64,000 nt of DNA from an uncultured Candidatus Saccharibacteria bacterium (GTDB lineage: Bacteria > Patescibacteriota > Minisyncoccia > Phycocordibacterales > UBA1006). The stretch is from assembly GCA_964601935.1 (NCBI GenBank), contig CAZROP010000001.1, positions 185,867 to 249,866 of the forward strand, in the 5' to 3' direction. Position 1 is the stretch's first letter. Each line of letters begins with the position of its first letter. The notes under the pieces were generated by a model, which worked only from the letters and a program-made list of their open reading frames with translations, ran no database searches and was not told the origin of the DNA. The position numbers and the translations under genes were made by a program. Positions 17,067 through 55,095 of this stretch are shown here, piece by piece.

Positions 17067-17927
17067 CTACAGCGTGCAGAGAACGTACAGATTGAATGCT
17101 TGTGGATCCAGTGTCCAGGTAGCGACTACCTTCAGATTCACCATATGAATCTTCCAATTACGCTGTATGCCTGCCTGGATCTTCCATATATTAGGACCTT
17201 CTTTTTGATAAAAGCATCCTACGTCGGCAAATATCCTGTAGTCTTTCAATCCCGGAGCTGGTGCAGATATGAACACTCCTACCTCGCTATTTTTCGCCGA
17301 AATAAGTGCGAAAAATCTCTTATCTTCATACTGCATCGCGTATCCCCAACCAATAACTGTATCAGGTCGTACCCAGCCTGCGAATGTAAACCGGTTCCAT
17401 ACTGATATGACGTTGCGACCGAACTGACCTGCAAGATGGTATTCGGGCTTGAAGTTACGCAAGTGTACTCCTCCTAACACCCTGCCCGCTGAGTATTGAT
17501 ATTGTGCTCGCAGACCGGGAGCTTTCCCGGTAATCCGACTTTGTGCGGTTACTTCGAATTGACCACTACCTGTTACAGGCAACGGTCGCAACAGTGCAGC
17601 CGCAGGTGATGGAATATCCCCCAGGCTAAATGTCCAATGTGCATTGGGTTTCCAGTTAATACCCAGACTCAACGCTGGTTGCACACCCGAATCCCAGTAA
17701 CCCCAACCAGCCAGCAACACGTTGCCACCTAGCGACACCTCAAATCCGATACCAATTCTAATATCCCCAACTGTGGAGTTTTTGGTAGTGTCGAGCCGGT
17801 ATTGGTTCCCACCCAGAATACCAGCATATATATCAAGCTTCTTCCCCAAGGTATCAATAACAGTCAGTTGCGCGATTGCTGTATACCCTAGGCATACGCA
17901 AAGAATAGAAGAAATGATACTTTTCAT
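17067..17927 (-). CDS. secreted beta-strand-rich protein (porin/OMP-like pattern), unknown function
   Basis: 286 aa with the signal MKSIISSILCVCLGYTAIA-Q. The body is rich in Gly and aromatics with alternating hydrophobicity. Confidence 0.5.
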   Translation of the reverse strand: MKSIISSILCVCLGYTAIAQLTVIDTLGKKLDIYAGILGGNQYRLDTTKNSTVGDIRIGIGFEVSLGGNVLLAGWGYWDSGVQPALSLGINWKPNAHWTFSLGDIPSPAAALLRPLPVTGSGQFEVTAQSRITGKAPGLRAQYQYSAGRVLGGVHLRNFKPEYHLAGQFGRNVISVWNRFTFAGWVRPDTVIGWGYAMQYEDKRFFALISAKNSEVGVFISAPAPGLKDYRIFADVGCFYQKEGPNIWKIQAGIQRNWKIHMVNLKVVATWTLDPQAFNLYVLCTL

Positions 17928-19008
17928 TACACATGGTTTTTAATATTGAACAATCTTGCTTAAAAAACAAAACCGAACAAAACCAAGGAATAGGATCTAG
18001 AGCGCGAACGAATCCGCACACTATCCTATCGATGTAATGAAAAAATATTTTTCCTCTCCTCTCTGTATAGCTATGTGCCTCATACGGAACAACAATGTAT
18101 ACGTCATTGTAACAGTCTGGTGGCGGATGATAGATATCCGCAACAATTATCGTAGTAATATCCATACTGATTACTGTACTCATTTGTGCCGAAACACGTA
18201 GCGAACACACAACCGATAGAGATACCAACATCCCATGTCGCAGTATATGTCCTTGATTCAGAAGCAATTGAAATCCTTGGAGAATACCTAACCGTTTGGT
18301 TGGTAACTCCCTTACCAACAATCTCTCAGTTTTCGTCAGAGTACCTGTCAGCGATTTTTTGGTTCGTCGGACAAGTGTTTCTGCTACTATGCTGAAGTAA
18401 TGATCCTCAAACTTTCGTTTCAGGACCAGCCACAAGAACAAGGGCCAGAGTAATGTAACAAACAGAAGCTTGATAGGACTACCTGCGAATCGCCGGAAGT
18501 ATGGGTTTTCGTACACCCACAAACAGAACAATAATCCAACGAACGGCAATCCAAACAAGTACTGACGAAGCAACCAACTCAAGAGAGCTAACCATGCTGC
18601 TTTCCAATTAATCGGCTCCGCATCATCCAATTCTGGAAAATACTTGCTGCGTGCAGCATCAATGCTTGCCCGAGACGGGTTCTGTCTTTCCATAACTCGC
18701 ATGACTTCATTCTGTAGCAGTATAAATGCTGGTAGATTATCGGATCCCGTAAGATCATACCAGATCTGTTTCGCCGTATACAAATCGGCGAAATAACAAT
18801 CAGGGGTGTAGCTGTAGTATGCTGGTTCTGTGGCAGTAATCTTATGCAGTCTGCCCTTCCAGAACCTTTGAAGAGAGTCTATTGCAAACTGTGCGGTACC
18901 TGACGGTATCTCGTTTGCAGGTATATTGTATGTGTGCCAAAAACTCGTTGGCATACCAGTGTTCCAGATTAGCATCAGAAACACGGCAAGTTTGATAAAC
19001 TTTTTCAT
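17854..19008 (-). CDS. hypothetical membrane protein
   Basis: 384-aa ORF with an N-terminal signal/anchor and central TM cluster (LALLSWLLRQYLFGLPFVGLLFCLWVY, LLFVTLLWPLFLWLVL). Its 3' end overlaps the next gene by 74 nt. Confidence 0.45.
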   Translation of the reverse strand: MKKFIKLAVFLMLIWNTGMPTSFWHTYNIPANEIPSGTAQFAIDSLQRFWKGRLHKITATEPAYYSYTPDCYFADLYTAKQIWYDLTGSDNLPAFILLQNEVMRVMERQNPSRASIDAARSKYFPELDDAEPINWKAAWLALLSWLLRQYLFGLPFVGLLFCLWVYENPYFRRFAGSPIKLLFVTLLWPLFLWLVLKRKFEDHYFSIVAETLVRRTKKSLTGTLTKTERLLVRELPTKRLGILQGFQLLLNQGHILRHGMLVSLSVVCSLRVSAQMSTVISMDITTIIVADIYHPPPDCYNDVYIVVPYEAHSYTERRGKIFFHYIDRIVCGFVRALDPIPWFCSVLFFKQDCSILKTMCNEKYHFFYSLRMPRVYSNRATDCY

Positions 19009-19174: not shown

Positions 19175-19600
19175 TTATTCCGCGATCTTTACTCCCATCG
19201 AACGACAGGTTCCTTCTATCATCTTTATCACAGCATCGATGTCATTTGCATTAGAATACTGCATTTTCTCCTGTGCAATTTCTTCCATCTGCTTGCGAGT
19301 GATCTTACCTACGAATGATGAAGCATTTTTACCACTGCCTTTTGCTATGCCCAGTTTTGCTTTTATTAGCGCTGACATAGGAGAAGACTTGATAACATAA
19401 TCAAAAGAACGATCATCGTATGCCTGGAGAATAACATTCATGAGCATACCGTTTTTATCAGCGGTTTCTGCATTGAATTGCTTGATAAATTCACCGATAT
19501 TGACTCCCGCACCGCCCAATACTGGTCCCAAGGGAACTCCTGGAGCAGCCTTGCCACCTGGTACTACTAATTTGATTGTTTTTGTTGCTTTTTTTGCCAT
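19175..19600 (-). CDS. rplK: 50S ribosomal protein L11
   Basis: 141 aa with MAKKATKTIKLVVPGGKAAPGVPLGPVLGGAGVNIGEFIKQFNAET. Confidence 0.96.
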   Translation of the reverse strand: MAKKATKTIKLVVPGGKAAPGVPLGPVLGGAGVNIGEFIKQFNAETADKNGMLMNVILQAYDDRSFDYVIKSSPMSALIKAKLGIAKGSGKNASSFVGKITRKQMEEIAQEKMQYSNANDIDAVIKMIEGTCRSMGVKIAE

Positions 19601-20443: not shown

Positions 20444-20595
20444 GTCACGCCGCATAGTCGCTCGATGCTCTCCTTCGATTCCTCAGGATCATATTCGCTC
20501 CTTGCAGCTCGACCCCTAATTCGAATCTGCCGTTTCCGTTTATCAAATATACTACAAATGCTCCTATGGGTCGCATTCATAGCATTTTGCTAATG

Positions 20596-20680
20596 CGGAG
20601 ATGGCGGGATTCGAACCCGCGAGGGGTTGCCCCCTGCTACCTTTCCAAGGTAGTGCACTCGACCACTATGCGACATCTCC
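20596..20680 (-). tRNA. tRNA-Ser (anticodon GGA), class II
   Basis: Minus-strand fold: acceptor ggagatg/catctcc, anticodon stem ctacc/ggtag with loop ttGGAaa, long variable arm, T arm gcggg-ttcgaat-cccgc. Confidence 0.9.
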
Positions 20681-20727: not shown

Positions 20728-23700
20728 TTACGCTGCTTCTTGTAATTCTTCTCTTCCTTGCTCATTCAATGGAACAACTTTTGTACCGCTAGTTCTTTTA
20801 CGAGATAAAAAGTCTTTGAAATCTCTACCATTTTTTATTCGATCGACATGACTCTTTATCTGTTCATTAGTAGTACTCATTGATTCTACAACTTCTGGAG
20901 TAGTACTATTCTCCCGACCACGAGCTCTTCTTGCCAGCTGAGCTTGTATTTGCTCTGTAGTAGGACTTTTATTTTCTCTTGGTTTAGCATTTTCTATCCT
21001 TCTGCTCTGCCAAGAAGCTGTGGCTCTTTTTAGTGCAGGAGTAACGAATGCAGTACTTTGAAGCTGACCCTCCTCTTCTTTAGGTTTATCAAACACGCCA
21101 TCCCAGAAACTATCCCATCTATGTTCCTGTGTAAGGGTTTGAGATTCTGCGACGGGGGCTACATTTGCTTCTATTACACTTGATGTAGCAGAGGTTTGAT
21201 TGGTTTCTTCACCTGCAATAGGGGTATCAAACCCAAAGAATGAGGAATCATAACTCTGATTAGTAGTATTATTAATCGTCTGAGAGTTATTATCTTCAGC
21301 TTGCAGCCTATTACCTTGATTAGTATTATTAAGCTGTTCTCTATTATTTTCACCATCTCGAGCAAGAGAACGATCTCTCTGTAGAGTCCGCCTCTCATCA
21401 TTATCAGGCGTACGGCCTGGTTCTTGGTCTGGGTGTTTTTCCTTGTAGTCATCTGTCGGCCCCATAAATCGCTGGGCATGTATAGGTTGCACATGTATAT
21501 CAGTATCATATACATTAGGTGCTTCGTAGTCTATATCAAGGATTGGTTGATTCGAAAAGTTCTCACCCTGTATACGAGCCAACGAGCGTACATTGTACGG
21601 CATAGTATCTGAACCATCTCCCTCTAATACTTCTACTGCCAGTATCTGCCCTTTCAATTCGAATTTTCCATCTTCAGTCACATGAAGGAATTCAGAGTTA
21701 ACACCAGTATTCGGAATAAATGCCTTACCATTTTTATCAAATTCTATAAATACAGCACCTTTGTTACCGATACTATCACTTGTTACTAATTTTTCGCTTC
21801 CCTCGTAGAGCATTAACTTTATTTTTCCTTTTCCTACCATTTCTTTTATTTGATCTCCTGTCAGTTTATTACTACCAAATGTTGACTCATCGTTAAACAT
21901 GTCTGCAATCGACATTTCGTATCCCTTCACATTTCCATCAGCATCCCATATTACACCTGATCCATTTGGTCCTCCCCATTTTAGATCCAATTCATTGCGC
22001 GCAAATTCTTTGGTATCATAATCATAATAATTGTCCATTCGAACAGATTTGAATTCAGCTGGACGCTCTGCTCCATTATAAGAATCAAAATATGAACCTG
22101 GGACAGGTGTCTCTGTTATCGTGAATCCTTTCCCTGCTAATGCTTTCTGTATATCGTCCTGACCTATTACACCATCACCTGCGGCATCTGGTATAGAAAT
22201 GTTTACGCCATTCGGTCCTGTTAGTGCAACACCATTTCCCTGCTGCTCCAGACAGAACCCATCCGGTAGACGCACATCTGCAGATACCTTGCCATCTATA
22301 CCCTGGATGATAGAACTGTGAGACATGGTAGTCGTGCCTCCGCCTGTTATCAGATTTTTTAACTGCATCAGGAGTGTTGCCTTTTTCTCGGAATCTCGTT
22401 CTGTGAACCAACTTTCTACCAAACCCATCGTAGAATCATCTATCAATGCCCATATTTCAGCAGTTGCAATACCGAATGCAAATGATAGTGCAAATACGGC
22501 TGAACCTGTTATCGCTGCCTCTTTTGCGAGCATTGATTTCACCCCCCTCTTATGTTTAGAAATACTTTCTATCAACTCCTTTCTAGTTTTTGAAATCTCA
22601 GGATTTTCACGTGCATTTTGTAGAGCATTATTAAATTCATTACCAAGTTCTTTTTTTAATCCTGCACGTAGACGTGCCATTAGAACAGCAATTTCACGAT
22701 GTTGTGCTTCTACCTGACCCGGATCATACTGAATTAATTCTACCTTTTTAATATTACCTGACTTTATAAGATCTTCATAACGGATCAATAATTCCAGTTT
22801 TGATTCTAGGGGATACTCCTGACCAGCACGTAATTCGCTGATAATAGATTGTGCTGGTTGCAAATCCATGCTAAATTTTTCAAACTTTGCAGCAACTTTA
22901 TCATTACTATAGGTTTCTCCTGCAGCAGTGTTCTGGTAATACTGCTGTGCCTCGGTGGTTCTACGATTATACTGCGCTGATCCTGCGAATGCTCCACCTA
23001 TAACTGAACCTACGACTGGCACAGCTAATGTTGCTTCTGCTGCCTTTTTCGAAACTATTTTTGCGACTGATGCCGCAGCACCCGCGAGGACAGCCAGCGT
23101 TGTTCCATTAAACACTCTTGTGACTTTTATTTTTTCACACCATCTACCAAATCTACCTTTGTATTTCGATGATAACGAATGTTCTGCAATCGCTATTTTC
23201 AGAGAAATATGAAGTTCGTTTATATATCTAGCTTTCTCATCAGCGCTCAAACCCTCAAATAGAGACTTGACTTCTCTGCAGACCACAAAGAAATTATGAG
23301 CAGTTATTGTTTCCTGACCACCTCCTTGGATTCTGCGTAGTGTATCGAGCTGCTGATTTACTAACTCCTGATACGTAATTGTTTGACCTGTGGGTACTTC
23401 TGATCTGAAACTATCGATATCTTCCTGAGATTTCAGAAATTCTATCAAAAATGTTCTGAGATTTTCTGATACCTGTGCCTGTCGAGTTTCATTATTATCT
23501 ACATTATAGACCTTTTCACCTGCGCTCAAGATACTATCGTCACCACTAATCACACGATCAGCTGCTGATTCGTACAGTGCACGTGTTCTTGCCTCGCCAT
23601 CATCCTCACCCAAAAACACATTACGCTGTTCTGCTGTTTCCCGTAGTGCAGCAACACGGTGTTTTGCCTGTCGATACTCATGAACTATTGCATTTTTAGC

Positions 23701-23871
23701 TCTTGTGAACTGTCGTGCGATCCAGTTCTTTTTTTCTGCTGACTGTTCCTGAGCCCCTAATCGTTCTGCTGCCAATTTACGAGCATACTGTCGTTGAATA
23801 TCAGTCACATCAGCAATACCTACATTAACTTCTGTAGGTATTTCTTCAAAACTTGTTTCTCTGAGCAACAT
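20728..23871 (-). CDS. giant membrane protein of unknown function (coiled-coil N-terminus, two Gly/Ala-rich TM anchors, extracytoplasmic domain, Q/N/T-rich tail)
   Basis: 1047-aa uninterrupted ORF. The TM segments are TLAVLAGAAASVAKIV...LAVPVVGSVIGGAFAGSA and ITGSAVFALSFAFGIATAEIWALI. Confidence 0.7.
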   Translation of the reverse strand: MLLRETSFEEIPTEVNVGIADVTDIQRQYARKLAAERLGAQEQSAEKKNWIARQFTRAKNAIVHEYRQAKHRVAALRETAEQRNVFLGEDDGEARTRALYESAADRVISGDDSILSAGEKVYNVDNNETRQAQVSENLRTFLIEFLKSQEDIDSFRSEVPTGQTITYQELVNQQLDTLRRIQGGGQETITAHNFFVVCREVKSLFEGLSADEKARYINELHISLKIAIAEHSLSSKYKGRFGRWCEKIKVTRVFNGTTLAVLAGAAASVAKIVSKKAAEATLAVPVVGSVIGGAFAGSAQYNRRTTEAQQYYQNTAAGETYSNDKVAAKFEKFSMDLQPAQSIISELRAGQEYPLESKLELLIRYEDLIKSGNIKKVELIQYDPGQVEAQHREIAVLMARLRAGLKKELGNEFNNALQNARENPEISKTRKELIESISKHKRGVKSMLAKEAAITGSAVFALSFAFGIATAEIWALIDDSTMGLVESWFTERDSEKKATLLMQLKNLITGGGTTTMSHSSIIQGIDGKVSADVRLPDGFCLEQQGNGVALTGPNGVNISIPDAAGDGVIGQDDIQKALAGKGFTITETPVPGSYFDSYNGAERPAEFKSVRMDNYYDYDTKEFARNELDLKWGGPNGSGVIWDADGNVKGYEMSIADMFNDESTFGSNKLTGDQIKEMVGKGKIKLMLYEGSEKLVTSDSIGNKGAVFIEFDKNGKAFIPNTGVNSEFLHVTEDGKFELKGQILAVEVLEGDGSDTMPYNVRSLARIQGENFSNQPILDIDYEAPNVYDTDIHVQPIHAQRFMGPTDDYKEKHPDQEPGRTPDNDERRTLQRDRSLARDGENNREQLNNTNQGNRLQAEDNNSQTINNTTNQSYDSSFFGFDTPIAGEETNQTSATSSVIEANVAPVAESQTLTQEHRWDSFWDGVFDKPKEEEGQLQSTAFVTPALKRATASWQSRRIENAKPRENKSPTTEQIQAQLARRARGRENSTTPEVVESMSTTNEQIKSHVDRIKNGRDFKDFLSRKRTSGTKVVPLNEQGREELQEAA

Positions 23872-23885
23872 ACCGATATAGAAAT

Positions 23886-24233
23886 CTATTGAGACACCTC
23901 TGTCGGGGACACAGGTTCTTGCGACGATGAATTATCTGGGATGTAGAGTCTTCTGAACTCTAACATTTCTTTCGTAAGAAGCTCTGCCATATTAGGAACA
24001 TGTGCTGCGCAGAATTCCTGAATTTCAGCATCTGATGCTGTTTCTGTCATAGCATCGAATGTATCTAGTTTGTCTTTCGGTAATGCTGTAAAAATAGCAA
24101 CCTGAATACGCGTTTCCAATTGCTGCATAAAATCAGCTTTCATTTCGGCATAAATTTCCGGCTCTAGATCGCCAAAATTTTTGTCGTGCAGTATCTCGTC
24201 TATAAAATTTCCTAAAATTTCATCAGTGTTCAT
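23886..24233 (-). CDS. small acidic helical protein, partner of the giant protein (DUF5663-like from memory)
   Basis: 115 aa, 14 nt upstream of the 1047-aa gene. It aligns by eye with the ORF at 55096..55419. Confidence 0.55.
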   Translation of the reverse strand: MNTDEILGNFIDEILHDKNFGDLEPEIYAEMKADFMQQLETRIQVAIFTALPKDKLDTFDAMTETASDAEIQEFCAAHVPNMAELLTKEMLEFRRLYIPDNSSSQEPVSPTEVSQ

Positions 24234-24370
24234 AAGTACTATAAGGTGGAATTATACAATAACACCATCAGTATACACTGAACATAGATTATTGTATTGT
24301 GTATAACATTATAGTATTTATCGAAGAAACATTTGAAGATTGTGAATATAACTAAGTATAAAAGTATAAA

Positions 24371-24400
24371 AAACAAAACACCCTTACGGGTGTTTTGTTT
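24371..24400 (-). terminator. hairpin terminator after the 73-aa gene
   Basis: aaacaaaacaccc / ttac / gggtgttttgttt forms a perfect 13-bp stem. Confidence 0.7.
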
Positions 24401-24419
24401 TAGGTATTCTCAGAGAGAA

Positions 24420-24792: not shown

Positions 24793-26382
24793 TTATACAT
24801 CGACCAACGGAGGTTTTGGACGGTACTGCAACGCATCCAGTATATGCCGGTCTTCAATAGTAGGAGACGATTCCATATCTGCAATCGTACGACCAATACG
24901 TATTACGCGATGATAGGCACGCGGTGACAAGTGCAGTTTTTCCGCGCTTTTCATCAATAACGTTCGTGCGCTATCTGACAAACCTACGGAATTCATATCA
25001 CGCGCCTGAATCAATGCATTAGGTGATCGTAATCCTGCAGACCCTGCACGTGTACTACCAAACGCACGTGCCTGTATGATATTTTGCCTGATCTGTGCAC
25101 TAGTTTCTCCTATAGAACTGTTATCATGCAAAGTTTCGTAGGAAATATGCTCTACCGGAACCCAGAGATCAATACGATCAACCAGAGGTCCTGATAGCTT
25201 TTTCCTATATTTTCGTATCTGAATTTCGCTACAGGTACAGCGTTTGACCCGTGACCCTGCAAATCCACATGGACAAGGATTCATAGCTGCAACTAATATA
25301 AAATTAGCAGGAAATTCTATTGTTCCTCGGGCACGCGATACAGTTACCACCTTATCCTCCAGCGGTTGCCGTAAACTTTCTAATACTTTTAGGTCAAATT
25401 CAGGGAATTCATCCAAAAACAACACACCGCGGTGCGCGAGACTCACTTCGCCAGGGCGTGGCACCGTGCCCCCACCTACTAATGCCACATAACTACTAGT
25501 ATGGTGCGGACTACGAAATGGCGGGTAATTAATAAATGACCCTTGTAGTGTTCCTGCGACTGAATGAATCCCTGTTACCTCTATGGCATCATCCAGTGAT
25601 AACTGAGGTAATAACCCAGTAAACGCACGGGCGAGCATGGTTTTGCCCGTTCCGGGCGGTCCGAACAAGGCAATACTATGGCCGCCTGCGGCGGCTATTT
25701 CTAACGCCCGTTTTGCCGATTCCTGACCTCGCACTGTCGATATGTCAGGATACTGTGGTGATTGTCGTAATAATGACTCGTCGAACTGGGCTATGGTAAT
25801 ATTCTGTACCTCTGTAGGTAGTTTTTGTTCCCGCATCATGCGTTCGAAACCATTCGTATCAATATGCGCTACAATATCCCGCAGATGATGTACGCCATAT
25901 ACGGTGATACCTTCCACTACCGATGCCTCATTGGCGTTTTCTTGCGGCACATATATGTCGGTATATCCCTGGTTCCGAGCCTCGATAGTCAACGGTAACA
26001 CCCCGCGTACTGACTGAATATCTCCATTCAGTGATAACTCACCTAAAAACAAGGACTTGTCACACTCACCCTGTATCGATCCGCTCGCTATCAAATACCC
26101 TATAGCTATTGCAATATCGTAATATGACCCTTCTTTGCGTAATTCTGCGGGCGATAACGATACAATTGTTTTTTGATTAGCATGTTTTGGCGACGGAAAA
26201 CCGCTATTATGCAACGCGGTGCCCACGCGCCCTCGAGATTCATCCACTGATTTATCAGGTACACCAATAATATCGAATTTATTAAGAGTATTATGAACAA
26301 TATCTACCTCGACCGTAACAACACTACCCGTAATACCTCGTGGCTGCGCCGAATGTACCCGTGCAAATGACGGCTTTTTCAT
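24793..26382 (-). CDS. YifB/ComM-family Mg-chelatase-like AAA+ ATPase
   Basis: It has a Lon-like N-terminal domain, Walker A GPPGTGKTM, Walker B VLFLDEF and a Cys cluster NPCPCGF. The start is set at MKKPSF (26382) because a terminator hairpin (26421-26444) lies inside the longer ORF. Confidence 0.9.
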   Translation of the reverse strand: MKKPSFARVHSAQPRGITGSVVTVEVDIVHNTLNKFDIIGVPDKSVDESRGRVGTALHNSGFPSPKHANQKTIVSLSPAELRKEGSYYDIAIAIGYLIASGSIQGECDKSLFLGELSLNGDIQSVRGVLPLTIEARNQGYTDIYVPQENANEASVVEGITVYGVHHLRDIVAHIDTNGFERMMREQKLPTEVQNITIAQFDESLLRQSPQYPDISTVRGQESAKRALEIAAAGGHSIALFGPPGTGKTMLARAFTGLLPQLSLDDAIEVTGIHSVAGTLQGSFINYPPFRSPHHTSSYVALVGGGTVPRPGEVSLAHRGVLFLDEFPEFDLKVLESLRQPLEDKVVTVSRARGTIEFPANFILVAAMNPCPCGFAGSRVKRCTCSEIQIRKYRKKLSGPLVDRIDLWVPVEHISYETLHDNSSIGETSAQIRQNIIQARAFGSTRAGSAGLRSPNALIQARDMNSVGLSDSARTLLMKSAEKLHLSPRAYHRVIRIGRTIADMESSPTIEDRHILDALQYRPKPPLVDV

Positions 26383-26420
26383 AGATAGCCAGTACTGTAA
26401 CACAAATAATTGTAATATCA

Positions 26421-26444
26421 AAAACACCCTCTATAGGGTGTTTT
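26421..26444 (-). terminator. hairpin terminator after the Tyr/Asn/Cys-rich gene
   Basis: aaaacaccct / ctat / agggtgtttt forms a perfect 10-bp stem. Confidence 0.7.
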
Positions 26445-27205: not shown

Positions 27206-27751
27206 CTACAATGCCTTGATATGCGTAAAATCCAGATCTACAGGAGTTTCGCGACCAAACATCGAGATAATGACTCGTGCACGTCCTGTTTCTGGGGATA
27301 GCTCGCTAATAACCCCATACTGGTCCTTGAACGGTCCTTCGAGCACACGAACCTTGTCATGTACCGCAAAGTCCGATTGATAGGTCACAGCGGTGTTTTC
27401 TGCCCGCTGCATGATGCGATTGAGCTCGTCCTCGGTAATCGGCACAGGCTGCGTTCCTGACCCCACAAAGCCCGTCACACGCGGTGTATTACGCACAATG
27501 TACCAGGAATCGTCGTCTACGATCATTTCTACTAGAACATACCCTGGATAGACCTTTTCATCCACAGTCTGCTTCTTTGCGCCCTTTATTTTTACCGTTT
27601 TTTCATGAGGAACCAGTACACTGAATATTTTATCCTGATATCCCAGAGATTCCACACGCTGACGCAAATTACGCGCCACAGCATCCTCGTAACCAGAATA
27701 AGTGTGTACTACATACCATGCACGCTGCCCTGAACTTTGTTGGCGAGACAT
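27206..27751 (-). CDS. nusG: transcription termination/antitermination factor NusG
   Basis: 181 aa. It has WYVVHTYSGYEDAV (NGN domain) and a C-terminal KOW motif (DKVRVLEGPFKDQYGVISEL). Confidence 0.95.
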   Translation of the reverse strand: MSRQQSSGQRAWYVVHTYSGYEDAVARNLRQRVESLGYQDKIFSVLVPHEKTVKIKGAKKQTVDEKVYPGYVLVEMIVDDDSWYIVRNTPRVTGFVGSGTQPVPITEDELNRIMQRAENTAVTYQSDFAVHDKVRVLEGPFKDQYGVISELSPETGRARVIISMFGRETPVDLDFTHIKAL

Positions 27752-29247: not shown

Positions 29248-30354
29248 TTATCGGCCTACCGGCATTAATAATGCTCTAAAATAGATATCATCTGGCGAGG
29301 TAACCATGATAGGGCGCATTGGATCTATACAGGAAAATACCACCCTATCCACAGACAGTACGTTCATTATTTTCATAATATTATCAGCATTTACGCGTAT
29401 CATGAGGTTTTCCTCGATATCTCCGACTATCAACGCTCTAAATGATGATTTACCCCGTCCACGGTCGTTATAATCCGTTTCGCAGACACACATACTCTCG
29501 TCTGTATTGGGCTTTAGCATTATTTTAGGGAACTGAGGGTCGGCGAATGGCTGTACTGTACGTAGTGCAGTACGTACCTCGTCACGTGTGGTCTCTATGG
29601 TAATAGGAAATTCTTTGGGAATGATTTGTTCATACTGAGGATACGAACCTGTGATAGTGCGTATTATCAATGTGTAATTTCCTGACTGAAACTGACAACT
29701 GCCTTCTGTCGCCACACAATCGACCTTTCCACTATTTCCTAGGCAATGTAGCACATGAGGCGTGTATTTATTAGGTAACAACACTGTCCCCTCCTCTAGC
29801 TCACAAGGTACTCGAGTCTCAGCCAGGTAAAAACTATCTGTCGCAGCAGCTACTAAAAACCCTTGTTTTATTGACAAAAACACCGATGCAAGCTCCGGTC
29901 GTATATCAGAAACCGCACAGGCGAATGACACCCGTTTGATAACATCAGATAGTAATGTAGACGATCCTGTATACCAAGTATCTCCAACGAGTTCAGCGAA
30001 CTCCTGAACAGTTTCATGGGGATAGGTTTTAATGTCCGCCTCCGAATCCCCTGAAACGACATGTACCACACCTTCTACTATCTCCAATGTCACTTCGCCG
30101 AGGTTTTTGATAGTACTCAGAAACCCTATCAGGACATTCTGATCGATAGCGACACGTCCTGCATCATCAACAGATACAAACGGTATGATGACGCGTCCCG
30201 ATACCCCTAGACCATGCGCCAGCACCTCTACGTGATCTGTGGCAACAGTGAGACACGTGTACGCTAGGATAGGTTGCGCTGGATGGCGTGTTGGTAATTT
30301 TGATACTGATTGTAGCGCATCCAGTAGAGTTTTCCCCTGCAAGGTCAGTTTCAT
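29248..30354 (-). CDS. dnaN: DNA polymerase III beta subunit (sliding clamp)
   Basis: 368 aa. It has an MKLTLQGKTLLDALQSVSKL...PILAYTCL N-terminus, three-domain length and an ATDSFYLAE-type motif. Confidence 0.85.
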   Translation of the reverse strand: MKLTLQGKTLLDALQSVSKLPTRHPAQPILAYTCLTVATDHVEVLAHGLGVSGRVIIPFVSVDDAGRVAIDQNVLIGFLSTIKNLGEVTLEIVEGVVHVVSGDSEADIKTYPHETVQEFAELVGDTWYTGSSTLLSDVIKRVSFACAVSDIRPELASVFLSIKQGFLVAAATDSFYLAETRVPCELEEGTVLLPNKYTPHVLHCLGNSGKVDCVATEGSCQFQSGNYTLIIRTITGSYPQYEQIIPKEFPITIETTRDEVRTALRTVQPFADPQFPKIMLKPNTDESMCVCETDYNDRGRGKSSFRALIVGDIEENLMIRVNADNIMKIMNVLSVDRVVFSCIDPMRPIMVTSPDDIYFRALLMPVGR

Positions 30355-30590: not shown

Positions 30591-33305
30591 CTAGGGTGCG
30601 CACAGGGTGTTCGCTCTATCACGAGTTAGGCTATCCCAAATACCAGGAGGCTCCTCTAGTCCGCGCGGCTGCATAATAGTGGTGTAGTTCTGTAGTTGGA
30701 AATCTTTTACTGCTTCTTCGGTTTTGGATTCAAAAGTGCCGGTGACTTCTATACTATAGCCTTGTTGTACTAGAAAGAGTTGTACTCGCTGGATCTCTGA
30801 AGTGTCAGTGCTATCACGGGTGAGTTCAGTGATAAATGGTGCCGAGCATGCCGATACGGACTGTTCGCCCAGGGCGACCTGTTCTATTGTCGATACGCGG
30901 GGTTCTGTATCGGGGATATCCAATTCCTGTAGCCCGGTACGCACTCGTACATCATTGAGGACTTTATTTGCTTTACCTCGACTGAATTTGAAGAAGTTGC
31001 CAGTAGCGTGACCTACTCCAGCCTGGATCAGAATATCGCTGTCGTTGTTCTGATAGGTGTTCACGGCCTGGGTAGTTTCAGGTCCGAAGTATCCATTCAC
31101 CTCGAGATCAGTGCCAAGATAGTAGTTGAGGAATTCTTGAATACGTTTTACTTCTTCAGGATAAGTTGGTCCGAGGTTCTGGTTCATGTCTTTGAGAAAT
31201 AGATACTCTTCCAGAGATTGTGGTAGCGGTTTGTTTGTGTTGAATGGGGATGTCTCTATCGTTTCTTTTGTTATAGAAGGCTGATTTTTTGATACCTCTT
31301 TGATACTTTCTTTTGTAGTTGTCGTTTTTATCGTGGTGTTCGTAGTCAGAGAAGGTACAGTAGTTGGTGTTTTTTCTGCTGTTGAACTTACCGCGGTGGT
31401 ACTTGATTTTGAAAGAGGATTGTAAGTATCTACGGAAGTAGCCAAAGCCAATCGAATCGAACCTCTGTCGAGAGCGGTACCTTGTGATAATGAATCGGAC
31501 AGAGTTCTGCTGTCTGTTATGAGTACACCGTCCATTGATCCGAGGATTGGTAGATTAAATGCATCAGAACTTTCCGGTATAAATCCTGTACTACCTGATG
31601 CTAATAATAGTAGGAGTGTAGCAATAGTCGCCTTTTTGACATGTTTTTTTGCTACCTGATGACGTACTTTTTTGTGAATCTGTTTATGTACCGGTATCGA
31701 TTTGTTTTCTGGTTTGCTACTGCTGAATAGTGCTTGTATGAGAGCTATTACAATAGTACTACCTAGTACTATTGCTCCTATGGATGCAAGGAGGAAGAGT
31801 AATTGGTTGATAGAGATATCAGTATACATATAGTAGGTCACTATTCGTGTATACATAACGTATCCACCGAGTGCGATACACCCTATCAGACCTATAAATA
31901 TAGTGAATAATAGGAAATTACTTGTAGGTTTTGTAGTATGTACCGATGTTGTGATTCGTTTCATACGCATAACGGTTGGTGTCCGCGTATCTTTGTGCTT
32001 CATAGATGCATACTGCCCCCATAATGTGCCCAGCATATAGAATAACCCTCCTATCATCAATGTGAATCCTATATCAGATAAAATATCTCCTGTTAGTGAC
32101 CAGGTATAGGGCAGCTTTTCGATTACATGTGCAGAAGAAGCACTGTACGCCTGAACATTTTGTACAAAGGGTACCACTAATGCTACAACAAATAAAACAT
32201 AGTTTGCGATATGGAGAGCCGCTGTTTCAGGGGATCGTGTGCTTCCTTTGTGTGCTTTATGATGGAGTAGTGTAGCAATACAGAGCACTGCCAAGAATCC
32301 TAGTGTTATAGGTAATAACTCATAAGTTTCTATAAATGTTCGTAGAGAGGTTTTCCAGTCTACGTTTTGCAGCGAACGTGTTTGTATAGCGTTTTCTTCT
32401 TCTGGTGTTGTTATGACTTTGGTGCCGAGTGCCAGACGTAATGGCTCTGTACTCTGTGTGTAATAATGATCGCCTGCTGGTGTGATAATAGTGGTAATGG
32501 ATGTTTCAGTATTAGGTAATAGAGATGCTAATACATCAGGAGTCAGTGATGCCATACGAAGCCTGTGCCCAGATAGGTTACTCGATTCAGAAATATATTG
32601 AACGGTTTCTCTATTTGCAGTAAAAGGAGTAATTTCTGATAGTGAAGGTAGCTCACCATTCTGTAGTGCATACGCGGAAGCAGGTATAAATACTAATGTA
32701 CATACTGCAACAGCAACTAATTTATACCAAGAGTTGGATAACTGCATTAATACTTGTGCAGTATTTTTGAATAGAGAGAAATCTTGTGAATACTTTAGGG
32801 GTCTACGTCTGTCAGGTTCTCCATCATCAAGACACAAGCCATCCTGTGGGCTCGATGAGCTGGAAACACATACTGCACGCTCTCCTGAATAGGAAGATGG
32901 TGTTGCAGATGTATTTCCGGTAGAAGCTATAAGGTATGGAGACTGGATATATGTTGATGTAGATACTGTGCGACCACTGCGTGTTGCAGTTTTTGGTGCT
33001 GTTGCATAAACATGACTGCGTTCCTGTCGGATACGACTAGAAAGAGTACGTGGAGATTTCGATGTGATAGTTGTACGAGAATCCATCAGAGAACTTTGTG
33101 TTTGCGCACGCTGCGATACTGCGCGCTTGAACTCACCAGAAATATCTTTCTTTTGTGCAGTAACCGTTGTGGCGCGATTCCATACCTGTACAATCGGTGA
33201 CGGAGTTGCAGCGTGTGTGAACTTCTGTGTCTTTGATCGTGCACGAGAAGTACGTACGGACGACTGGGTGTTCATATGAACATGAGAGAGAGTTGATGTG
33301 CTCAT
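30591..33305 (-). CDS. large polytopic membrane protein with two C-terminal peptidoglycan-binding (PG_binding_1-like) domains
   Basis: 904 aa with a Ser/Thr-rich N-terminus and ~8 TM spans. The C-terminal repeats are IQEFLNYYLGTDLEVNGYFGPETTQAVNTYQ and VQLFLVQQGYSIEVTGTFESKTEEAVKDFQ. Confidence 0.65.
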   Translation of the reverse strand: MSTSTLSHVHMNTQSSVRTSRARSKTQKFTHAATPSPIVQVWNRATTVTAQKKDISGEFKRAVSQRAQTQSSLMDSRTTITSKSPRTLSSRIRQERSHVYATAPKTATRSGRTVSTSTYIQSPYLIASTGNTSATPSSYSGERAVCVSSSSSPQDGLCLDDGEPDRRRPLKYSQDFSLFKNTAQVLMQLSNSWYKLVAVAVCTLVFIPASAYALQNGELPSLSEITPFTANRETVQYISESSNLSGHRLRMASLTPDVLASLLPNTETSITTIITPAGDHYYTQSTEPLRLALGTKVITTPEEENAIQTRSLQNVDWKTSLRTFIETYELLPITLGFLAVLCIATLLHHKAHKGSTRSPETAALHIANYVLFVVALVVPFVQNVQAYSASSAHVIEKLPYTWSLTGDILSDIGFTLMIGGLFYMLGTLWGQYASMKHKDTRTPTVMRMKRITTSVHTTKPTSNFLLFTIFIGLIGCIALGGYVMYTRIVTYYMYTDISINQLLFLLASIGAIVLGSTIVIALIQALFSSSKPENKSIPVHKQIHKKVRHQVAKKHVKKATIATLLLLLASGSTGFIPESSDAFNLPILGSMDGVLITDSRTLSDSLSQGTALDRGSIRLALATSVDTYNPLSKSSTTAVSSTAEKTPTTVPSLTTNTTIKTTTTKESIKEVSKNQPSITKETIETSPFNTNKPLPQSLEEYLFLKDMNQNLGPTYPEEVKRIQEFLNYYLGTDLEVNGYFGPETTQAVNTYQNNDSDILIQAGVGHATGNFFKFSRGKANKVLNDVRVRTGLQELDIPDTEPRVSTIEQVALGEQSVSACSAPFITELTRDSTDTSEIQRVQLFLVQQGYSIEVTGTFESKTEEAVKDFQLQNYTTIMQPRGLEEPPGIWDSLTRDRANTLCAP

Positions 33306-36511: not shown

Positions 36512-37012
36512 TTATGGACATTTCACAGTCGCAGGTGTTCCAGCAGCAGCAGCAATAGTTACTACACTGGATGAAGCAGCAATCTGTTTGTTGGATCCTG
36601 CTGAGTCAGCACACCATGCAGTACTACCTGCACCACTCTTCAATAATGTGACCGCAGCCCAAGAAACTGAGTTACTAGAACATGCAGTTGCCACTGTTGT
36701 TGATGTTGAAACGGCAGCACCTGCTGTACTTGCAGCTACTGTTGTCGCAGGTAAGTAGGCCTGTCCTGCTGCCAACACTCCATCATATGTCTTACTTGTA
36801 GTAGCACATACAGTTTGATAACCTGTTGTTGTTTCATCGTAAATAACTTCTGCCGAAGCTCTCACATTAGATATATTACCCTTGATCGCAGCATCAGCAC
36901 CTTTCACACGCGCACTGTTTACTGAACCAATCACTACTGTTGCAAGAACACCAATGATGGCAATAACCACGAGAAGCTCTATCAGAGTAAAACCTCGTAA
37001 TTTTATACTCAT
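36512..37012 (-). CDS. type IV pilin / pseudopilin-like protein (paralog 1)
   Basis: 166 aa with the class III signal MSIKLRG|FTLIELLVVIAIIGVLA. The C-terminal IAAAAGTPATVKCP is shared by all three paralogs. Confidence 0.9.
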   Translation of the reverse strand: MSIKLRGFTLIELLVVIAIIGVLATVVIGSVNSARVKGADAAIKGNISNVRASAEVIYDETTTGYQTVCATTSKTYDGVLAAGQAYLPATTVAASTAGAAVSTSTTVATACSSNSVSWAAVTLLKSGAGSTAWCADSAGSNKQIAASSSVVTIAAAAGTPATVKCP

Positions 37013-37069
37013 AGTATATTAAATTGTTAAGTTGATAATATGATAGAGAATTTACGTATTATTCTCTAT
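36783..37069. repeat. 287-bp perfect direct repeat (copy A) covering the pilin 5' coding region plus 57 nt upstream
   Basis: It is base-for-base identical to 37531-37817 by manual alignment. Confidence 0.9.
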
Positions 37070-37070
37070 C
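37042..37070 (-). promoter_or_regulatory. conserved palindrome upstream of each pilin gene (also at 37790-37817 and 38471-38497)
   Basis: (g)atagagaat-ttacgtatt-attctctat(c) lies 30-58 nt upstream of each pilin start codon. Confidence 0.5.
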
Positions 37071-37253
37071 ATGTAACAATCATATCAGTCATTACTAAGT
37101 TTTCATTATGAATAATTGGGTAAACTGTGGAGATCTAGTATGGGTATACGCACCAATTTAGTATGTGTGACATAGTGAGTACACTAGCTCTGGAAAATAC
37201 AAAGACCACTGTCGATTGACAGTGGTCTCGGTAAATACTAGTTATGTAACACA

Positions 37254-37760
37254 CTATGGACATTTCACAGTAGCTGGCGTCCCAGCTGCCGCGGCAATAG
37301 ATACTGTATAAGCTGTGGTCAGTGTAATCTGCTCATTAGACCCCGATGAATCAGCGCACCATGCTGTTAACCCTGCTGTTCCTCGTAGTGGTACCGCTGC
37401 AACCCAAGAAATCCCATTACTAACACATACACCCAGTGTTGTTGGTGCGCCAGTATTAGTTGCAGTACCGCTTGTATTGGCGGTTACTGTCGCGTCAGAT
37501 CTGTGTACCTTTGCTGCCGCTAATACCCCTTCATATGTCTTACTTGTAGTAGCACATACAGTTTGATAACCTGTTGTTGTTTCATCGTAAATAACTTCTG
37601 CCGAAGCTCTCACATTAGATATATTACCCTTGATCGCAGCATCAGCACCTTTCACACGCGCACTGTTTACTGAACCAATCACTACTGTTGCAAGAACACC
37701 AATGATGGCAATAACCACGAGAAGCTCTATCAGAGTAAAACCTCGTAATTTTATACTCAT
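37254..37760 (-). CDS. type IV pilin / pseudopilin-like protein (paralog 2)
   Basis: 168 aa. The first 76 residues are identical to paralog 1. Confidence 0.9.
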   Translation of the reverse strand: MSIKLRGFTLIELLVVIAIIGVLATVVIGSVNSARVKGADAAIKGNISNVRASAEVIYDETTTGYQTVCATTSKTYEGVLAAAKVHRSDATVTANTSGTATNTGAPTTLGVCVSNGISWVAAVPLRGTAGLTAWCADSSGSNEQITLTTAYTVSIAAAAGTPATVKCP

Positions 37761-37817
37761 AGTATATTAAATTGTTAAGTTGATAATATGATAGAGAATT
37801 TACGTATTATTCTCTAT
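37531..37817. repeat. 287-bp perfect direct repeat (copy B)
   Basis: It is identical to 36783-37069. Confidence 0.9.
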
Positions 37818-37933
37818 ATAGCTGTATAATAACAGACTTAATAACTGTTTATATTTAATTTTCTCGAACCCTGTGGAGATCTAGAACAATATAAAAACTA
37901 CTATCTGTCGATAGTAGTTTTTATTATTCATAC

Positions 37934-38431
37934 TTATGGACATTTCACGGTAGGAGGCGTCCCAGCTGCGGCGGCGATGGTTACACTACCAACAACGGCA
38001 GGTACTGATTTGTTAGACCCCGATGAATCAGCGCACCATGCAGTCGAATAGTTTGCTCCTTTGAGAGGAGAAACAGCAGCCCATGATACTCCATTACTAA
38101 CGCAAACAGCTAATATCCCTGATGCCGTATTTGCTGCTGCACCAGTTGTGTTGGATGCTACGGTTATAGTAGATCCGTGTACTTTCGCTGCGGCGAGAAC
38201 ACCTTCGTATCCTTTGCTGGTAGTAGCACATACACTCGTGTAATTACCTGTTTCATCATAAATAGTTTCTGCTGTAGTGCGTACATTCGATATATTCCCC
38301 TTGATAGCTGCGTCTGCTGCTTTTACTCTTGCACTGTTTACTGAACCAATCACTACTGTTGCAAGAACACCAATGATGGCAATAACCACGAGAAGCTCTA
38401 TCAGAGTAAAACCTCGTAATTTTATAATCAT
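37934..38431 (-). CDS. type IV pilin / pseudopilin-like protein (paralog 3)
   Basis: 165 aa with MIIKLRG|FTLIELLVVIAIIGVLATVVIGSVNSARVK. Confidence 0.9.
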   Translation of the reverse strand: MIIKLRGFTLIELLVVIAIIGVLATVVIGSVNSARVKAADAAIKGNISNVRTTAETIYDETGNYTSVCATTSKGYEGVLAAAKVHGSTITVASNTTGAAANTASGILAVCVSNGVSWAAVSPLKGANYSTAWCADSSGSNKSVPAVVGSVTIAAAAGTPPTVKCP

Positions 38432-39011: not shown

Positions 39012-39992
39012 ATGCTATACTATAGCCATATTATAGTTATGTCAAGTCATGCTGCTTTGCGCCAATTCTTGGAACATTTAGAAATCGAACGTGGTCGATC
39101 CTCGCTCACTCTGCGTAACTATGAACATTATTTGACCACACTGTTCAATGTGATGAAGATCGAGTCTGTGGCTCAGATCGATGCAGATGTTATTCGCGAG
39201 TTTCGGTTGTGGTTGAATCGTCAGCCAGGCGCACGAGCACGAGGTCAGACAGATTCTCTGATGAAACGACGCACTCAAAATTACTACCTCATCGCTCTGC
39301 GATCATTCCTACGGTATGCGATGAAACGGGGTTGGACGCAGTTTGCTCCTGACAATATCGAACTCGCCCGTGTCGGTGATCGTCACATTGATATGATATC
39401 TGCTGATGAGCTTTCCAGAATAATGTCATCATTTGATACGACTACTCGTTCAGGTGTTCGGGACCGAGCTATACTCGAACTCCTCTACTCGACCGGATTG
39501 CGTGTATCAGAATTGGTGTCACTAAACTGTGACCTGGATCTATCCCGCGATGAACTGTCGATTCGCGGTAAGGGTGACAAGGTGCGACTCGTATTCGTTT
39601 CACCAGATGCTCGCATATGGTTGAAAAAATACCTCGGACTTCGTGCCGATGCACAGGATGCTCTGTTCGTCGATGAGCGTGCCAGCGCCGCAGAGTCATC
39701 GGATCGCGAGGCACGCCTAACGCCTCGATCTGTGGAACGTATTGTCGCCGCCGCCGCGGTACGTGCTGGTATCGGAAAGAAGGTGACCCCACATATCATT
39801 CGTCATTCGTTCGCGACAGGTCTATTGGAAAATGGCGCGGACATTCGTTCGGTGCAGACACTGCTCGGTCATGCGCATATCGGGACAACGCAGATCTACA
39901 CGCATGTCACTGACAAACATCTAAAAGATGTATTCAAAAAATTTCACAAACCGACAGATACCTCGGTTACAGAAAAAACCTCTGACACGTAG
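39012..39992 (+). CDS. xerC: tyrosine site-specific recombinase, XerC/XerD family
   Basis: It has an SSLTLRNYEHYL core-binding domain and catalytic motifs LLYSTGLRVSEL, HIIRHSFAT and LLGHAHIGTTQIYTHV. The start may be 39039 (MSSHAAL). Confidence 0.9.
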   Translation: MLYYSHIIVMSSHAALRQFLEHLEIERGRSSLTLRNYEHYLTTLFNVMKIESVAQIDADVIREFRLWLNRQPGARARGQTDSLMKRRTQNYYLIALRSFLRYAMKRGWTQFAPDNIELARVGDRHIDMISADELSRIMSSFDTTTRSGVRDRAILELLYSTGLRVSELVSLNCDLDLSRDELSIRGKGDKVRLVFVSPDARIWLKKYLGLRADAQDALFVDERASAAESSDREARLTPRSVERIVAAAAVRAGIGKKVTPHIIRHSFATGLLENGADIRSVQTLLGHAHIGTTQIYTHVTDKHLKDVFKKFHKPTDTSVTEKTSDT

Positions 39993-50732: not shown

Positions 50733-52802
50733 ATGAGTGAACGCACGCCCGGAGAAGAAATCCTAGAAAACGCCGAGAATACTCCAGAAAGATTAATAAA
50801 TGCTCATATATTGAACGATATAGAGTTACAGTATGCATTACAGTTATTCCCTGTAGAAACTCTAGAATCTGTGCAAGAGAAAAGTCACGAAAAGATAGTA
50901 GATGAGCGAGTAACAATGCTGAACCGTTCGTGCATGTATGACGAGGTCAAGCCAGGAGAGGAGGGTATGCATCGACCAGAGCGTGCATATACTCCATTTT
51001 CGAAACTACGGTTCATAGCACCTCCTACTGAAGAGGTTGCAAATGAACTGCGATCACTGGGGGTGGTTCATGTGAAACAGTCTCTCGAGGCAACGAGACA
51101 GGCCCAAGATCTAGCACAATTTACCGAAATGGTCGAATGGTACGAAACACAAGAGCAGGCAAAACAGGAATGTTTAGAAGTTCTTCGTTCTTTACAAGAG
51201 AGCGCACAAGATGATTTACATGAGCTGGCTTTGCTCTTTCAGAAGATAGAGACTTCTTCTTCGGAGGCTGGTCACATGAATTACGAGCACGCGCAGAAAT
51301 GGGCGTACCAACTACTGATGGGAGGGCCTCTCACGAACAGTGTACAGTCGAGCGGAGGAGGACTGCGCGATACCTTCGAGGCATACATTTCTAATGTAGA
51401 GAACCTAAGGCAGCCGGCATACTACACCGATTTGTTGGTTGAAATACAAAATCACCAACGTGCTATAGAAATACTGAAGAGTTTGCCAGCGGCTACAGAC
51501 CCAGGATTGCAGGAGAAGTATAGAATCTGGCGGCAGATGAATACTCTTTTCAGAGGAGATGTAGAGGATAAGGTCTATACGTTCATGACCGAACAGGTAG
51601 GATATAATCAGACAAAACAGGGTATCCACATCCACAATCGTGTACCCAAAAGCTATCAACCTACACGTGGTCAGTATTCTCCTAAATACGGGTACAATGA
51701 TGCAAAGAATAAGCAACAAGAACTAATGCCTCGGGTGGAGCTTGCTCTGGAGAGCGCAACTCGATTCGTCGATACGACAGTCGCTCGTGCGCAGATGGAG
51801 TACGAAGTACTGCATCTGCCCGCGACAGAAACAAAATACGTTTCACCTGATGACGCGGCGAAGTATCTGAAACACGAGAAAGACAAGCGAGTAATAGAAG
51901 CACGAAAAGCAGCTGAGTTATTAGGTCGTAGACCAGAGACGTTTGCGCGGACTGTGGTTGATGCGGGGAACTTTACAGGAGAAGTCAGCTTTACTCTGAG
52001 GCCAAGAGATATGTTACCTGATATACATGCTGAGATACAAGAGCTAGAGAGACAAATCGTGGATTTGGGGATCGAGATAGGTAAATTGACGAAATCGGCT
52101 GATTCCATGAAAGATTCATTGGAAAAGGGTAGGGCGTATGATAGTTCGTCTAAACTTTATAAATTGGTTGTGTCACCTCCTATTGTTAACACAACCTGGA
52201 CTGAGCATGGCAACAAGCTTGATGATATAAAAAACTTAACATCAAAAAAGACAGACATAGAGCAAAATCTCGAGGTATTGCAAGCAGAATTAGAAACACA
52301 ATCACGACACCAATCTAATATATCGTTTGACTGGGAAAATGAGTGTATAAATATGATTACTAGAGGTGAATACCTGGGTTATGATATGAAACAGGGCGAA
52401 GTATCGGATATAGGGGCAGATTTTGATGTGGTGGCGTTCAAAAGATCACTATATAATCGTCTGTCTGGTGGTAGTAAGTCTATTTCAGAATTAGAACTGC
52501 GTAATTTGCAGAATGATATTGTTACATTCCTAGGCTTGGTATCCCGATGGGGGTTGTCGCCTGCAGAACAAACAGCATTAGACCATTATGATTCTGTGTT
52601 GCAGCGAGTCAGTAAAGGCGAATCGCGTACTCCAGAATGGTTACAGGGCGTGCCATTTGATGCGAAACAGGTGTACGAACATGCACTCGATGTTGTAATG
52701 CCTGCACAGGAAGCAGCTTTGGGTGTTGTAGATGGAAATGTATCTGTTGAAGTAGTGGCTGACGCGTATATGCGGTTGTACGGCGATAATAATGAAAAGT
52801 AA
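50733..52802 (+). CDS. large soluble hypothetical protein (coiled-coil-rich ORFan)
   Basis: 689-aa uninterrupted ORF with no TM segment and no recognised motif. It has its own terminator at 52825-52861. Confidence 0.55.
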   Translation: MSERTPGEEILENAENTPERLINAHILNDIELQYALQLFPVETLESVQEKSHEKIVDERVTMLNRSCMYDEVKPGEEGMHRPERAYTPFSKLRFIAPPTEEVANELRSLGVVHVKQSLEATRQAQDLAQFTEMVEWYETQEQAKQECLEVLRSLQESAQDDLHELALLFQKIETSSSEAGHMNYEHAQKWAYQLLMGGPLTNSVQSSGGGLRDTFEAYISNVENLRQPAYYTDLLVEIQNHQRAIEILKSLPAATDPGLQEKYRIWRQMNTLFRGDVEDKVYTFMTEQVGYNQTKQGIHIHNRVPKSYQPTRGQYSPKYGYNDAKNKQQELMPRVELALESATRFVDTTVARAQMEYEVLHLPATETKYVSPDDAAKYLKHEKDKRVIEARKAAELLGRRPETFARTVVDAGNFTGEVSFTLRPRDMLPDIHAEIQELERQIVDLGIEIGKLTKSADSMKDSLEKGRAYDSSSKLYKLVVSPPIVNTTWTEHGNKLDDIKNLTSKKTDIEQNLEVLQAELETQSRHQSNISFDWENECINMITRGEYLGYDMKQGEVSDIGADFDVVAFKRSLYNRLSGGSKSISELELRNLQNDIVTFLGLVSRWGLSPAEQTALDHYDSVLQRVSKGESRTPEWLQGVPFDAKQVYEHALDVVMPAQEAALGVVDGNVSVEVVADAYMRLYGDNNEK

Positions 52803-52861: not shown

Positions 52862-52968
52862 TACGTGAAACCTGTATCGGTGTCATAGTACAGTGGATAA
52901 TGCCTGAAATTACAAGCAATTGATTGATATACTGGGTTAGACATCGGTATGCGCCGATCTTGTAGTGT

Positions 52969-55047: not shown

Positions 55048-55095
55048 GGTGTAATTCTTGCTCTTGAATCTAGTTGGGTATGATATACTAATTCT

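Follow-up and report, generated by a model that had tools for sequence, protein, structure and literature searches.

DUF5663-like genes adjoin large unannotated open reading frames at two loci of a Candidatus Saccharibacteria contig

A 64,000-nucleotide (nt) stretch of contig CAZROP010000001.1 (assembly GCA_964601935.1, positions 185,867 to 249,866 of the forward strand) from an uncultured Candidatus Saccharibacteria bacterium, hereafter the window, contains two loci at which a gene for a small acidic protein lies beside one for a large protein without annotation. At locus A the small gene, smallA, precedes bigA, whilst at locus B bigB precedes smallB (Table 1). Judged by profile comparison, smallA is a bona fide member of the Pfam family DUF5663 (PF18908) and smallB is probably a distant homologue of it within one DUF5663 superfamily. 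The locus B pair recurs on a metagenomic contig, and further DUF5663-like genes directly follow other large open reading frames (ORFs). The evidence for a system is gene linkage at a handful of loci, a pairing that is real but modest and whose function is unknown. We tentatively favour the reading that these small proteins are cytoplasmic partners of variable large clients, two of which would here be anchored in the membrane.

Organisation of the two loci

Both pairs look like two-gene transcription units, given the promoter-like sites, terminators and gaps found at each locus. The window had previously been described by a model from its sequence and ORF translations, without database searches (the original prediction). 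The ORFs proposed there for locus A (115 and 1047 amino acids (aa), 14 nt apart) and for locus B (692 and 107 aa within 52969..55419) were recovered at the same coordinates, the latter two separated by 48 nt, as was the inversion of gene order between them, the small gene coming first at A and last at B. Co-transcription of smallA and bigA, likewise proposed, is plausible because the 14-nt gap contains no terminator when read and scanned, and because a terminator-like hairpin and a promoter-like site lie upstream. This hairpin reads as a clear 5′ boundary of the putative smallA-bigA unit, and TGTATAAT forms an extended -10-like motif about 20 nt 5′ of the smallA ATG. No terminator was detected in the 47 nt between bigA and the tRNA-Ser(GGA) gene. 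Identical proteins are also called on contigs assembled independently from run SRR13208889, as well as on an NCBI contig of 377 kb. No compositional anomaly was seen at the locus.

Small proteins of the DUF5663 superfamily

smallA matched PF18908 with an E value of 2.9e-8 over positions 1-81 of the 84-position model, and its 34.6 bits exceed the gathering score, which is 23.7 bits. The same family is given for smallA in the precomputed annotation of the protein collection. The assignment to DUF5663, which had been offered tentatively in the original prediction, therefore holds for smallA. Both small proteins are acidic, as had also been predicted. Neither has a signal peptide or transmembrane (TM) segment. 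An AlphaFold model of smallA built on a 7-sequence alignment (predicted local distance difference test score, pLDDT, 79.8) contains five helices (residues 3-17, 25-50, 53-65, 68-78 and 82-97) and returned no significant structural neighbour.

smallB had no match in Pfam at E <= 1 and should not be filed as a Pfam member. An exhaustive phmmer search of 1.84 billion cluster representatives found only three relatives of smallB, namely P0003 (50% identity), P0004 (36% identity) and P0005. The last is a 181-aa tandem protein of which both halves match smallB (E 4.7e-4 library-wide), and its C-terminal half carries a weak, sub-threshold match to DUF5663 (E 5e-3) that also appears in the precomputed annotation. 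A profile search added P0011 and P0012. P0012 aligns with positions 8-81 of the 84 in the DUF5663 model (E 1.6e-4, 22.7 bits), which is one bit below the cut-off, and in single comparisons it matches smallB at E 2.8e-9 and smallA at E 3.3e-5. Set against PF18908, smallA thus covers nearly the whole model above the gathering score and P0012 and P0005 lie just below threshold, whereas smallB, P0003, P0004 and P0011 have no Pfam match. To go by these profiles, the latter four form a divergent DUF5663-like clade that goes unrecognised by the Pfam model.

The homology of smallA and smallB rests on the intermediate sequences P0005 and P0012, which match both sides, rather than on direct comparison. 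Alignment with hhalign of smallA, P0012 and the C-terminal half of P0005 against smallB, P0003, P0011 and P0004 gave a probability of 94.2% and an E value of 1.2e-7 over 61 columns. With the bridging P0012 added to smallA, hhalign reaches probabilities of 94-95% and E values of about 1e-7; reversed-alignment controls gave E values of 0.054 and 0.26. When smallA alone was compared with the smallB clade, with no bridging sequences, the E value was 1.5e-3 and the probability 17%. The smallB-clade profile matched smallA at E 4e-4 in a single comparison, a score reached by 8 of 3000 shuffles of smallA. Moreover, smallA and smallB are the mutual best non-self match of each profile among the 326 six-frame ORFs of the window, in which no third DUF5663-like copy was found. 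A core pattern, L..D...L/F D.M......(D/E).V/I..F(L/C)...(I/V)P.F, is common to DUF5663, smallA, P0012 and P0005. The original prediction had aligned the two small proteins by eye and proposed a profile-profile check. Its alignment is upheld, in the same register, by the bridged comparison, but not by BLASTP, which returned nothing between smallA and smallB, and only weakly by direct profile comparison.

A search of the protein collection with smallA returned smallA itself only. With the alignment of the smallB clade as query, no match was obtained in the GTDB representative genomes, and the metagenomes yielded a single contig, L002. HP0062 of Helicobacter pylori was considered as a relative of the small proteins and rejected, since its profile match (E 0.15-0.19) was not significant. 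No mention of DUF5663 or PF18908 was found in the literature library searched, and neither a function nor a structure is on record for the family.

Pairing with large open reading frames elsewhere

The contigs L002 and L004 to L007 each carry a larger unannotated ORF directly 5′ of the small gene and on the same strand. L002 (GCA_013558375.1) is a 2.1-kb metagenome contig whose truncated ORF matches bigB aa 578-686 with 36% identity (E 9e-17). This homologue of the bigB C-terminus lies 50 nt 5′ of the gene for P0003, the smallB homologue with 50% identity. The C-terminal ~110 aa of bigB are therefore conserved in one metagenomic relative, together with the small neighbour. In L007, P0012 is encoded 5 nt 3′ of a 523-aa Lys/Glu-rich protein, an arrangement also present on three other contigs. 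In L004, L005 and L006 the start of the tandem protein P0008 overlaps the stop of the preceding protein (284 aa in L004). An all-against-all BLASTP of the large partners from every locus produced a single link, that between bigB and L002. Thus the co-occurrence of two families that the original prediction suggested looking for was found once, for the locus B pair, whereas the small genes in L007 and L004 follow unrelated soluble proteins. The recurrent element is therefore a small gene beside a large unannotated protein, and not a conserved two-family module.

Some further features of these contigs were noted. In L004 (866..1411), the 181-aa protein P0005/P0008 contains the DUF5663-like domain as a tandem duplicate, and ftsH lies directly 3′ of it. 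A yifB gene (Mg-chelatase-like ATPase) is located within a few kb 5′ of a DUF5663-like gene both in the window (24793..26427) and in L007 (2571..4094), the two YifB proteins being 51% identical; this proximity may be residual synteny, or coincidence. The neighbourhoods in L003 and L011 were uninformative. L003 (1..1474) is a metagenome contig of 27% GC on which the P0004 gene (149..436) is the only full-length predicted gene. Beyond it there is no ORF of >= 60 aa under code 11, and under code 25 only two stretches, of 69 and 78 aa, are free of stops; because ORFs are nearly absent under both codes, the ~1 kb 3′ of P0004 looks non-coding.

Architecture of the large proteins

Three hydrophobic segments were found in bigA (aa 256-274, 280-298 and 459-477, with Kyte-Doolittle (KD) values of 1.46, 1.56 and 1.92), in agreement with the hairpin and second anchor that had been described from the sequence. 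Basic clusters occur in the translation before and after the hairpin and before the third segment, and acidic residues follow the third. Because of this flanking charge pattern, an N-in/C-out topology fits bigA, with the hairpin presumably inserted in the membrane. The predicted Q/N/T/S-rich tail was confirmed in composition, with 34% Q/N/S/T in aa 800-1047 against 16-24% in the other segments, and its last ~107 aa are net positive. A single-sequence AlphaFold model of bigA (pLDDT 37.8) is too low in confidence for a fold search or a fold-level comparison of bigA and bigB; as it stands, it is helical over aa 20-510, contains beta structure over 540-770 and is coil, at very low confidence, over 780-1000. 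The four-part description of bigA in the original prediction is reasonable in this light, although we infer rather than observe its "extracytoplasmic" and "coiled-coil" parts.

Searches for relatives of bigA returned bigA itself only among 5.8 billion proteins, where the low-complexity tail may have swamped candidate selection. None were found in GTDB representative genomes, JGI metagenomes or IMG/VR, nor by tblastn against phage genomes and plasmids. Neither bigA nor bigB matched a family in Pfam (also searched by segments, E <= 10), NCBIfam, PHROG, PADLOC or the PDB sequences, and bigB was likewise absent from phage genomes, plasmids and IMG/VR. Hidden Markov models of the Pfam Gly-zipper families found no match in the hairpin-containing segments of either protein when these were scanned separately at E <= 10. 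Going by these searches, smallA adds a member to a family already catalogued, whereas bigA stands as an orphan and a single relative is known for bigB.

The original prediction went on to propose that the large proteins are related, share a TM topology and, with the small genes, make up a duplicated two-gene module. Relatedness was supported by none of the comparisons made. The best BLASTP match between bigA and bigB had an E value of 0.21, which is not significant; Smith-Waterman alignment of the hairpin regions gave a score of 37, which was reached by 15-42% of composition-preserving shuffles; and a profile of the bigB/L002 C-terminal domain found nothing in bigA. As for topology, a hairpin is present in both proteins, but the second anchor of bigB is doubtful. 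In bigB, aa 454-472 have a KD of 1.88, an overlapping segment is weaker (1.04-1.63) and the third reaches only 0.94; the same topology is therefore not established. Of the proposed module, the small genes are shared and the large ones not detectably so; since only the small gene is demonstrably common, a duplicated module is not shown. Only 2 of the ~46 long ORFs of the window combine an extended N-terminal region with a hydrophobic hairpin after it, near the centre, and these are the two beside its DUF5663-like genes.

Interpretation of the pairs

The reading that we favour, as a possibility still short of probable, is that members of the DUF5663 superfamily serve in the cytoplasm as partners of a variable large client, with which they are co-expressed, and that the two clients in the window are membrane-anchored. 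Each locus would be a small operon that encodes an acidic, all-helical cytoplasmic DUF5663 protein and a large, fast-evolving, lineage-specific client. In bigA, a helical cytoplasmic N-terminal half would most likely lead into a Gly/Ala-rich hairpin and a firmer TM helix, and the ~570 C-terminal residues would lie outside the cell as a beta-rich domain and a disordered Q/N/S/T-rich tail. The small protein may bind the cytoplasmic helical or the basic juxtamembrane part of its neighbour. Its small size and acidity, the absence of signals for export and the close linkage of the genes suggest that it could be a dedicated partner, serving as chaperone, assembly adaptor or regulator. That the pairs act at the cell surface or in host interaction, as the original prediction suggested, is speculation.

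A number of observations weigh against such a partnership. Short gaps are weak evidence of coupling because the genome is gene-dense, and the small gene, which is first at locus A, is last at locus B and in the relatives elsewhere. To go by their sequences, bigA and bigB have no detectable homology and only a rough architecture in common. The large partners in L007 and L004 are soluble, have no hydrophobic helices or Pfam domain, and show no relationship to bigA, bigB or one another; as the large partners are unrelated and two are soluble, there is no conserved client to argue from. The informative neighbourhoods number about five, of which some are near-duplicates of one another, and bigA and smallA are singletons. 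Lastly, the membrane segments given here are KD hydropathy windows, and those of the bigA hairpin (256-298) are only moderately hydrophobic.

Much of this would sit comfortably with incidental adjacency in a compact genome, in which DUF5663-like and large orphan genes are independent and the likeness of bigA and bigB is superficial. The lack of homology between the large proteins, the unrelated, soluble partners in other genomes, the inverted gene order, the weak third hydrophobic segment of bigB (KD 0.94) and a window dense with co-directional genes all point that way. We rank this explanation only slightly below the partner reading. Against it, both DUF5663-like genes of the window lie beside its sole two large ORFs with a central hairpin, the locus B pair is kept in L002 at 36-50% identity and the spacing is very tight, falling to 5 nt in L007 and to an overlap in L004.

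The other alternatives are weaker, and the membership tests that were run for them came out negative. One is that the pairs encode an effector or toxin with its cognate chaperone or immunity protein, the glycine-zipper-like hairpins of bigA and bigB forming pores and the small acidic protein keeping them inactive or soluble in the producer. The moderately hydrophobic hairpins do have GxxxG-type spacing of small residues, the large proteins are orphan or fast-evolving, and a small acidic partner recalls known chaperone-effector pairs. Moreover, the arrangement resembles operons of secretion chaperones, such as type VI secretion Eag/DUF1795 proteins with their TM-bearing effectors and type VII secretion Lap proteins with LXG toxins, in placing what may be a small acidic helical cytoplasmic protein beside a large variable one with hydrophobic helices. 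However, no toxin, LXG, PAAR, Rhs, Gly-zipper or immunity family was matched even at E <= 10, and PADLOC gave no match for the four proteins at E <= 0.1. The small proteins lack sequence or fold similarity to those chaperones and no marker domains were found; two clients of the DUF5663 relatives have no hydrophobic helices; and the ORFs scanned in the vicinity of the two loci included no identifiable secretion-system genes, cognate or otherwise. Where a toxin targets membranes, its immunity protein is usually a membrane protein too, whereas the small proteins here are soluble. We regard the toxin explanation as improbable. A known anti-phage defence system was rejected on the same PADLOC result.

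Locus A on its own, with a small helical gene directly 5′ of a gene for a membrane-spanning protein, mimics the operons of extracytoplasmic function (ECF) sigma factors and their anti-sigma factors, and bigA, putatively N-in/C-out with a single-pass-like arrangement and an extracytoplasmic domain, would suit the latter part. In a signalling pair of this style, a membrane protein whose sensor domain is extracytoplasmic would govern a small helical cytoplasmic regulator. It is very unlikely here and was rejected: there is no Sigma70 Pfam domain at E <= 1, the structural neighbours are non-specific, and no sigma-2, sigma-4 or anti-sigma domain was detected. smallA is, at 115 aa, too short (half the size of an ECF sigma factor), too acidic (net -16) and without a sigma-4 region, and both locus B and the relatives have the two genes the other way round. 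A prophage remnant, with bigA as a tape-measure-like helical protein and smallA as its small acidic chaperone, has a superficial likeness in its favour, since a small acidic helical gene lies immediately 5′ of a gene whose very long product is mostly helical, with Gly/Ala-rich hydrophobic segments at its centre. This is effectively refuted by the lack of matches in PHROG, in 50,697 phage genomes searched by tblastn and in IMG/VR, by identifiable neighbours that are housekeeping genes and by the absence of a compositional anomaly. No characterised system matching either pair was found in the family, phage, plasmid and defence collections searched.

A stronger form of the partner reading, which we consider improbable, is that the DUF5663 superfamily comprises lineage-restricted, dedicated cytoplasmic partners that each bind a different, diversifying large neighbour, and that the two clients here display variable surface ectodomains that might, for instance, mediate contact with host or neighbouring cells. 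Should the link between DUF5663 and variable neighbours hold, it would provide the first testable hypothesis for the family, that of a dedicated partner of a variable client, and would flag bigA and bigB as candidate surface determinants in a poorly sampled lineage with small genomes. For the present, the result is that a divergent clade of the family escapes the Pfam model, that the bigB pairing is kept in at least one relative and that "duplicated module" was an overstatement.

Genomic context and other features of the window

Table 1. Features of loci A and B, with window coordinates.
Feature	Position	Strand	Remarks
smallA	23886..24233	-	115-aa ORF; acidic (net -16); no hydrophobic segment
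bigA	20728..23871	-	1047-aa orphan ORF; start 14 nt past smallA stop
bigA aa 256-298, Ala/Gly-rich hydrophobic hairpin	22978..23106	-	KD hydropathy; GxxxG-type spacing; preceded by basic stretch KYKGRFGRWCEKIK
bigA aa 459-477, probable TM helix	22441..22497	-	strongest hydrophobic segment (KD 1.92)
bigA aa 478-790, presumed extracytoplasmic domain	21502..22440	-	mixed/beta; from charge distribution and low-confidence model strands
bigA aa 791-1047, Q/N/S/T-rich tail	20731..21501	-	probably disordered; from composition and charge windows; coil in model
Intrinsic-terminator-like hairpin	24370..24401	-	14-pair stem, then T-run; ends upstream gene for a 66/73-aa TM protein
Promoter-like site TTCAAA-18-TATAAT, upstream of smallA	24308..24337	-	consensus scan, 10/12 matches; consensus match only
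tRNA-Ser(GGA)	20595..20680	-	47 nt 3′ of bigA, same strand
upB	50733..52802	+	689-aa acidic soluble orphan; 166 nt 5′ of bigB
Promoter-like site between upB and bigB	52904..52933	+	consensus scan
bigB	52969..55047	+	692-aa ORF; single hydrophobic hairpin, aa 454-489
smallB	55096..55419	+	107-aa ORF; acidic (net -13); 48 nt past bigB; no hydrophobic segment
Intrinsic terminator past smallB, AAAAACCACCTG-tagcat-CAGGTGGTTTTTT	55443..55473	+	hairpin and T-run; read by eye, not listed by automatic scan

Around both loci, the neighbours that could be identified have housekeeping functions (YifB, L11, FMN reductase, tRNA-Ser, CCA-adding enzyme and cytidylate kinase). Genes for NusG, DnaN and PNPase are found at a greater distance in the window. 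nusG and rplK, which encodes L11, are mostly side by side in bacteria. In the window, nusG (27206..27751, minus strand) and rplK (19175..19600, minus strand) are ~7.6 kb apart, and the interval contains a 157-aa orphan, yifB, the 66/73-aa TM gene, smallA-bigA, tRNA-Ser and FMN reductase. The gene after L11 encodes a 384-aa membrane orphan (17854..19008) and not ribosomal protein L1.

At locus B, upB is treated as a neighbour of the bigB-smallB pair rather than as part of the unit. Together with a 742-aa polytopic membrane protein (61210..63438, minus strand), it is one of two further large orphans, for which the best Pfam match had an E value of 0.0022 and was below the gathering scores.

The window has a negative GC skew from 1 to 30 kb and a positive one from 42 to 62 kb, and its GC content rises from ~0.40 to 0.49 along its length. 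dnaN is located at 29248..30354 on the minus strand. A replication origin near 30 kb is possible from this skew but is not shown, DnaA boxes not being enriched in the window (23 observed against 20 expected). A gene at 30591..33305 (minus strand) has a G/C skew opposite to that of its surroundings; its 904-aa product contains numerous hydrophobic segments and carries peptidoglycan-binding domains at the C-terminus (PG_binding_1, E 6e-14).

Lastly, the region 36512..38431 (minus strand) looks like a type IV pilin-like gene cluster on the basis of its translations. It consists of three tandem paralogues of ~165 aa (36512..37012, 37254..37760 and 37934..38431), in all of which N-terminal hydropathy peaks at one and the same position and value (KD 3.04), and each has a match to the Pfam N_methyl prepilin motif at an E value of about 1e-7. 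A XerC/D-type tyrosine recombinase gene (39012..39992, plus strand; Phage_integrase, E 5e-41) adjoins this cluster.

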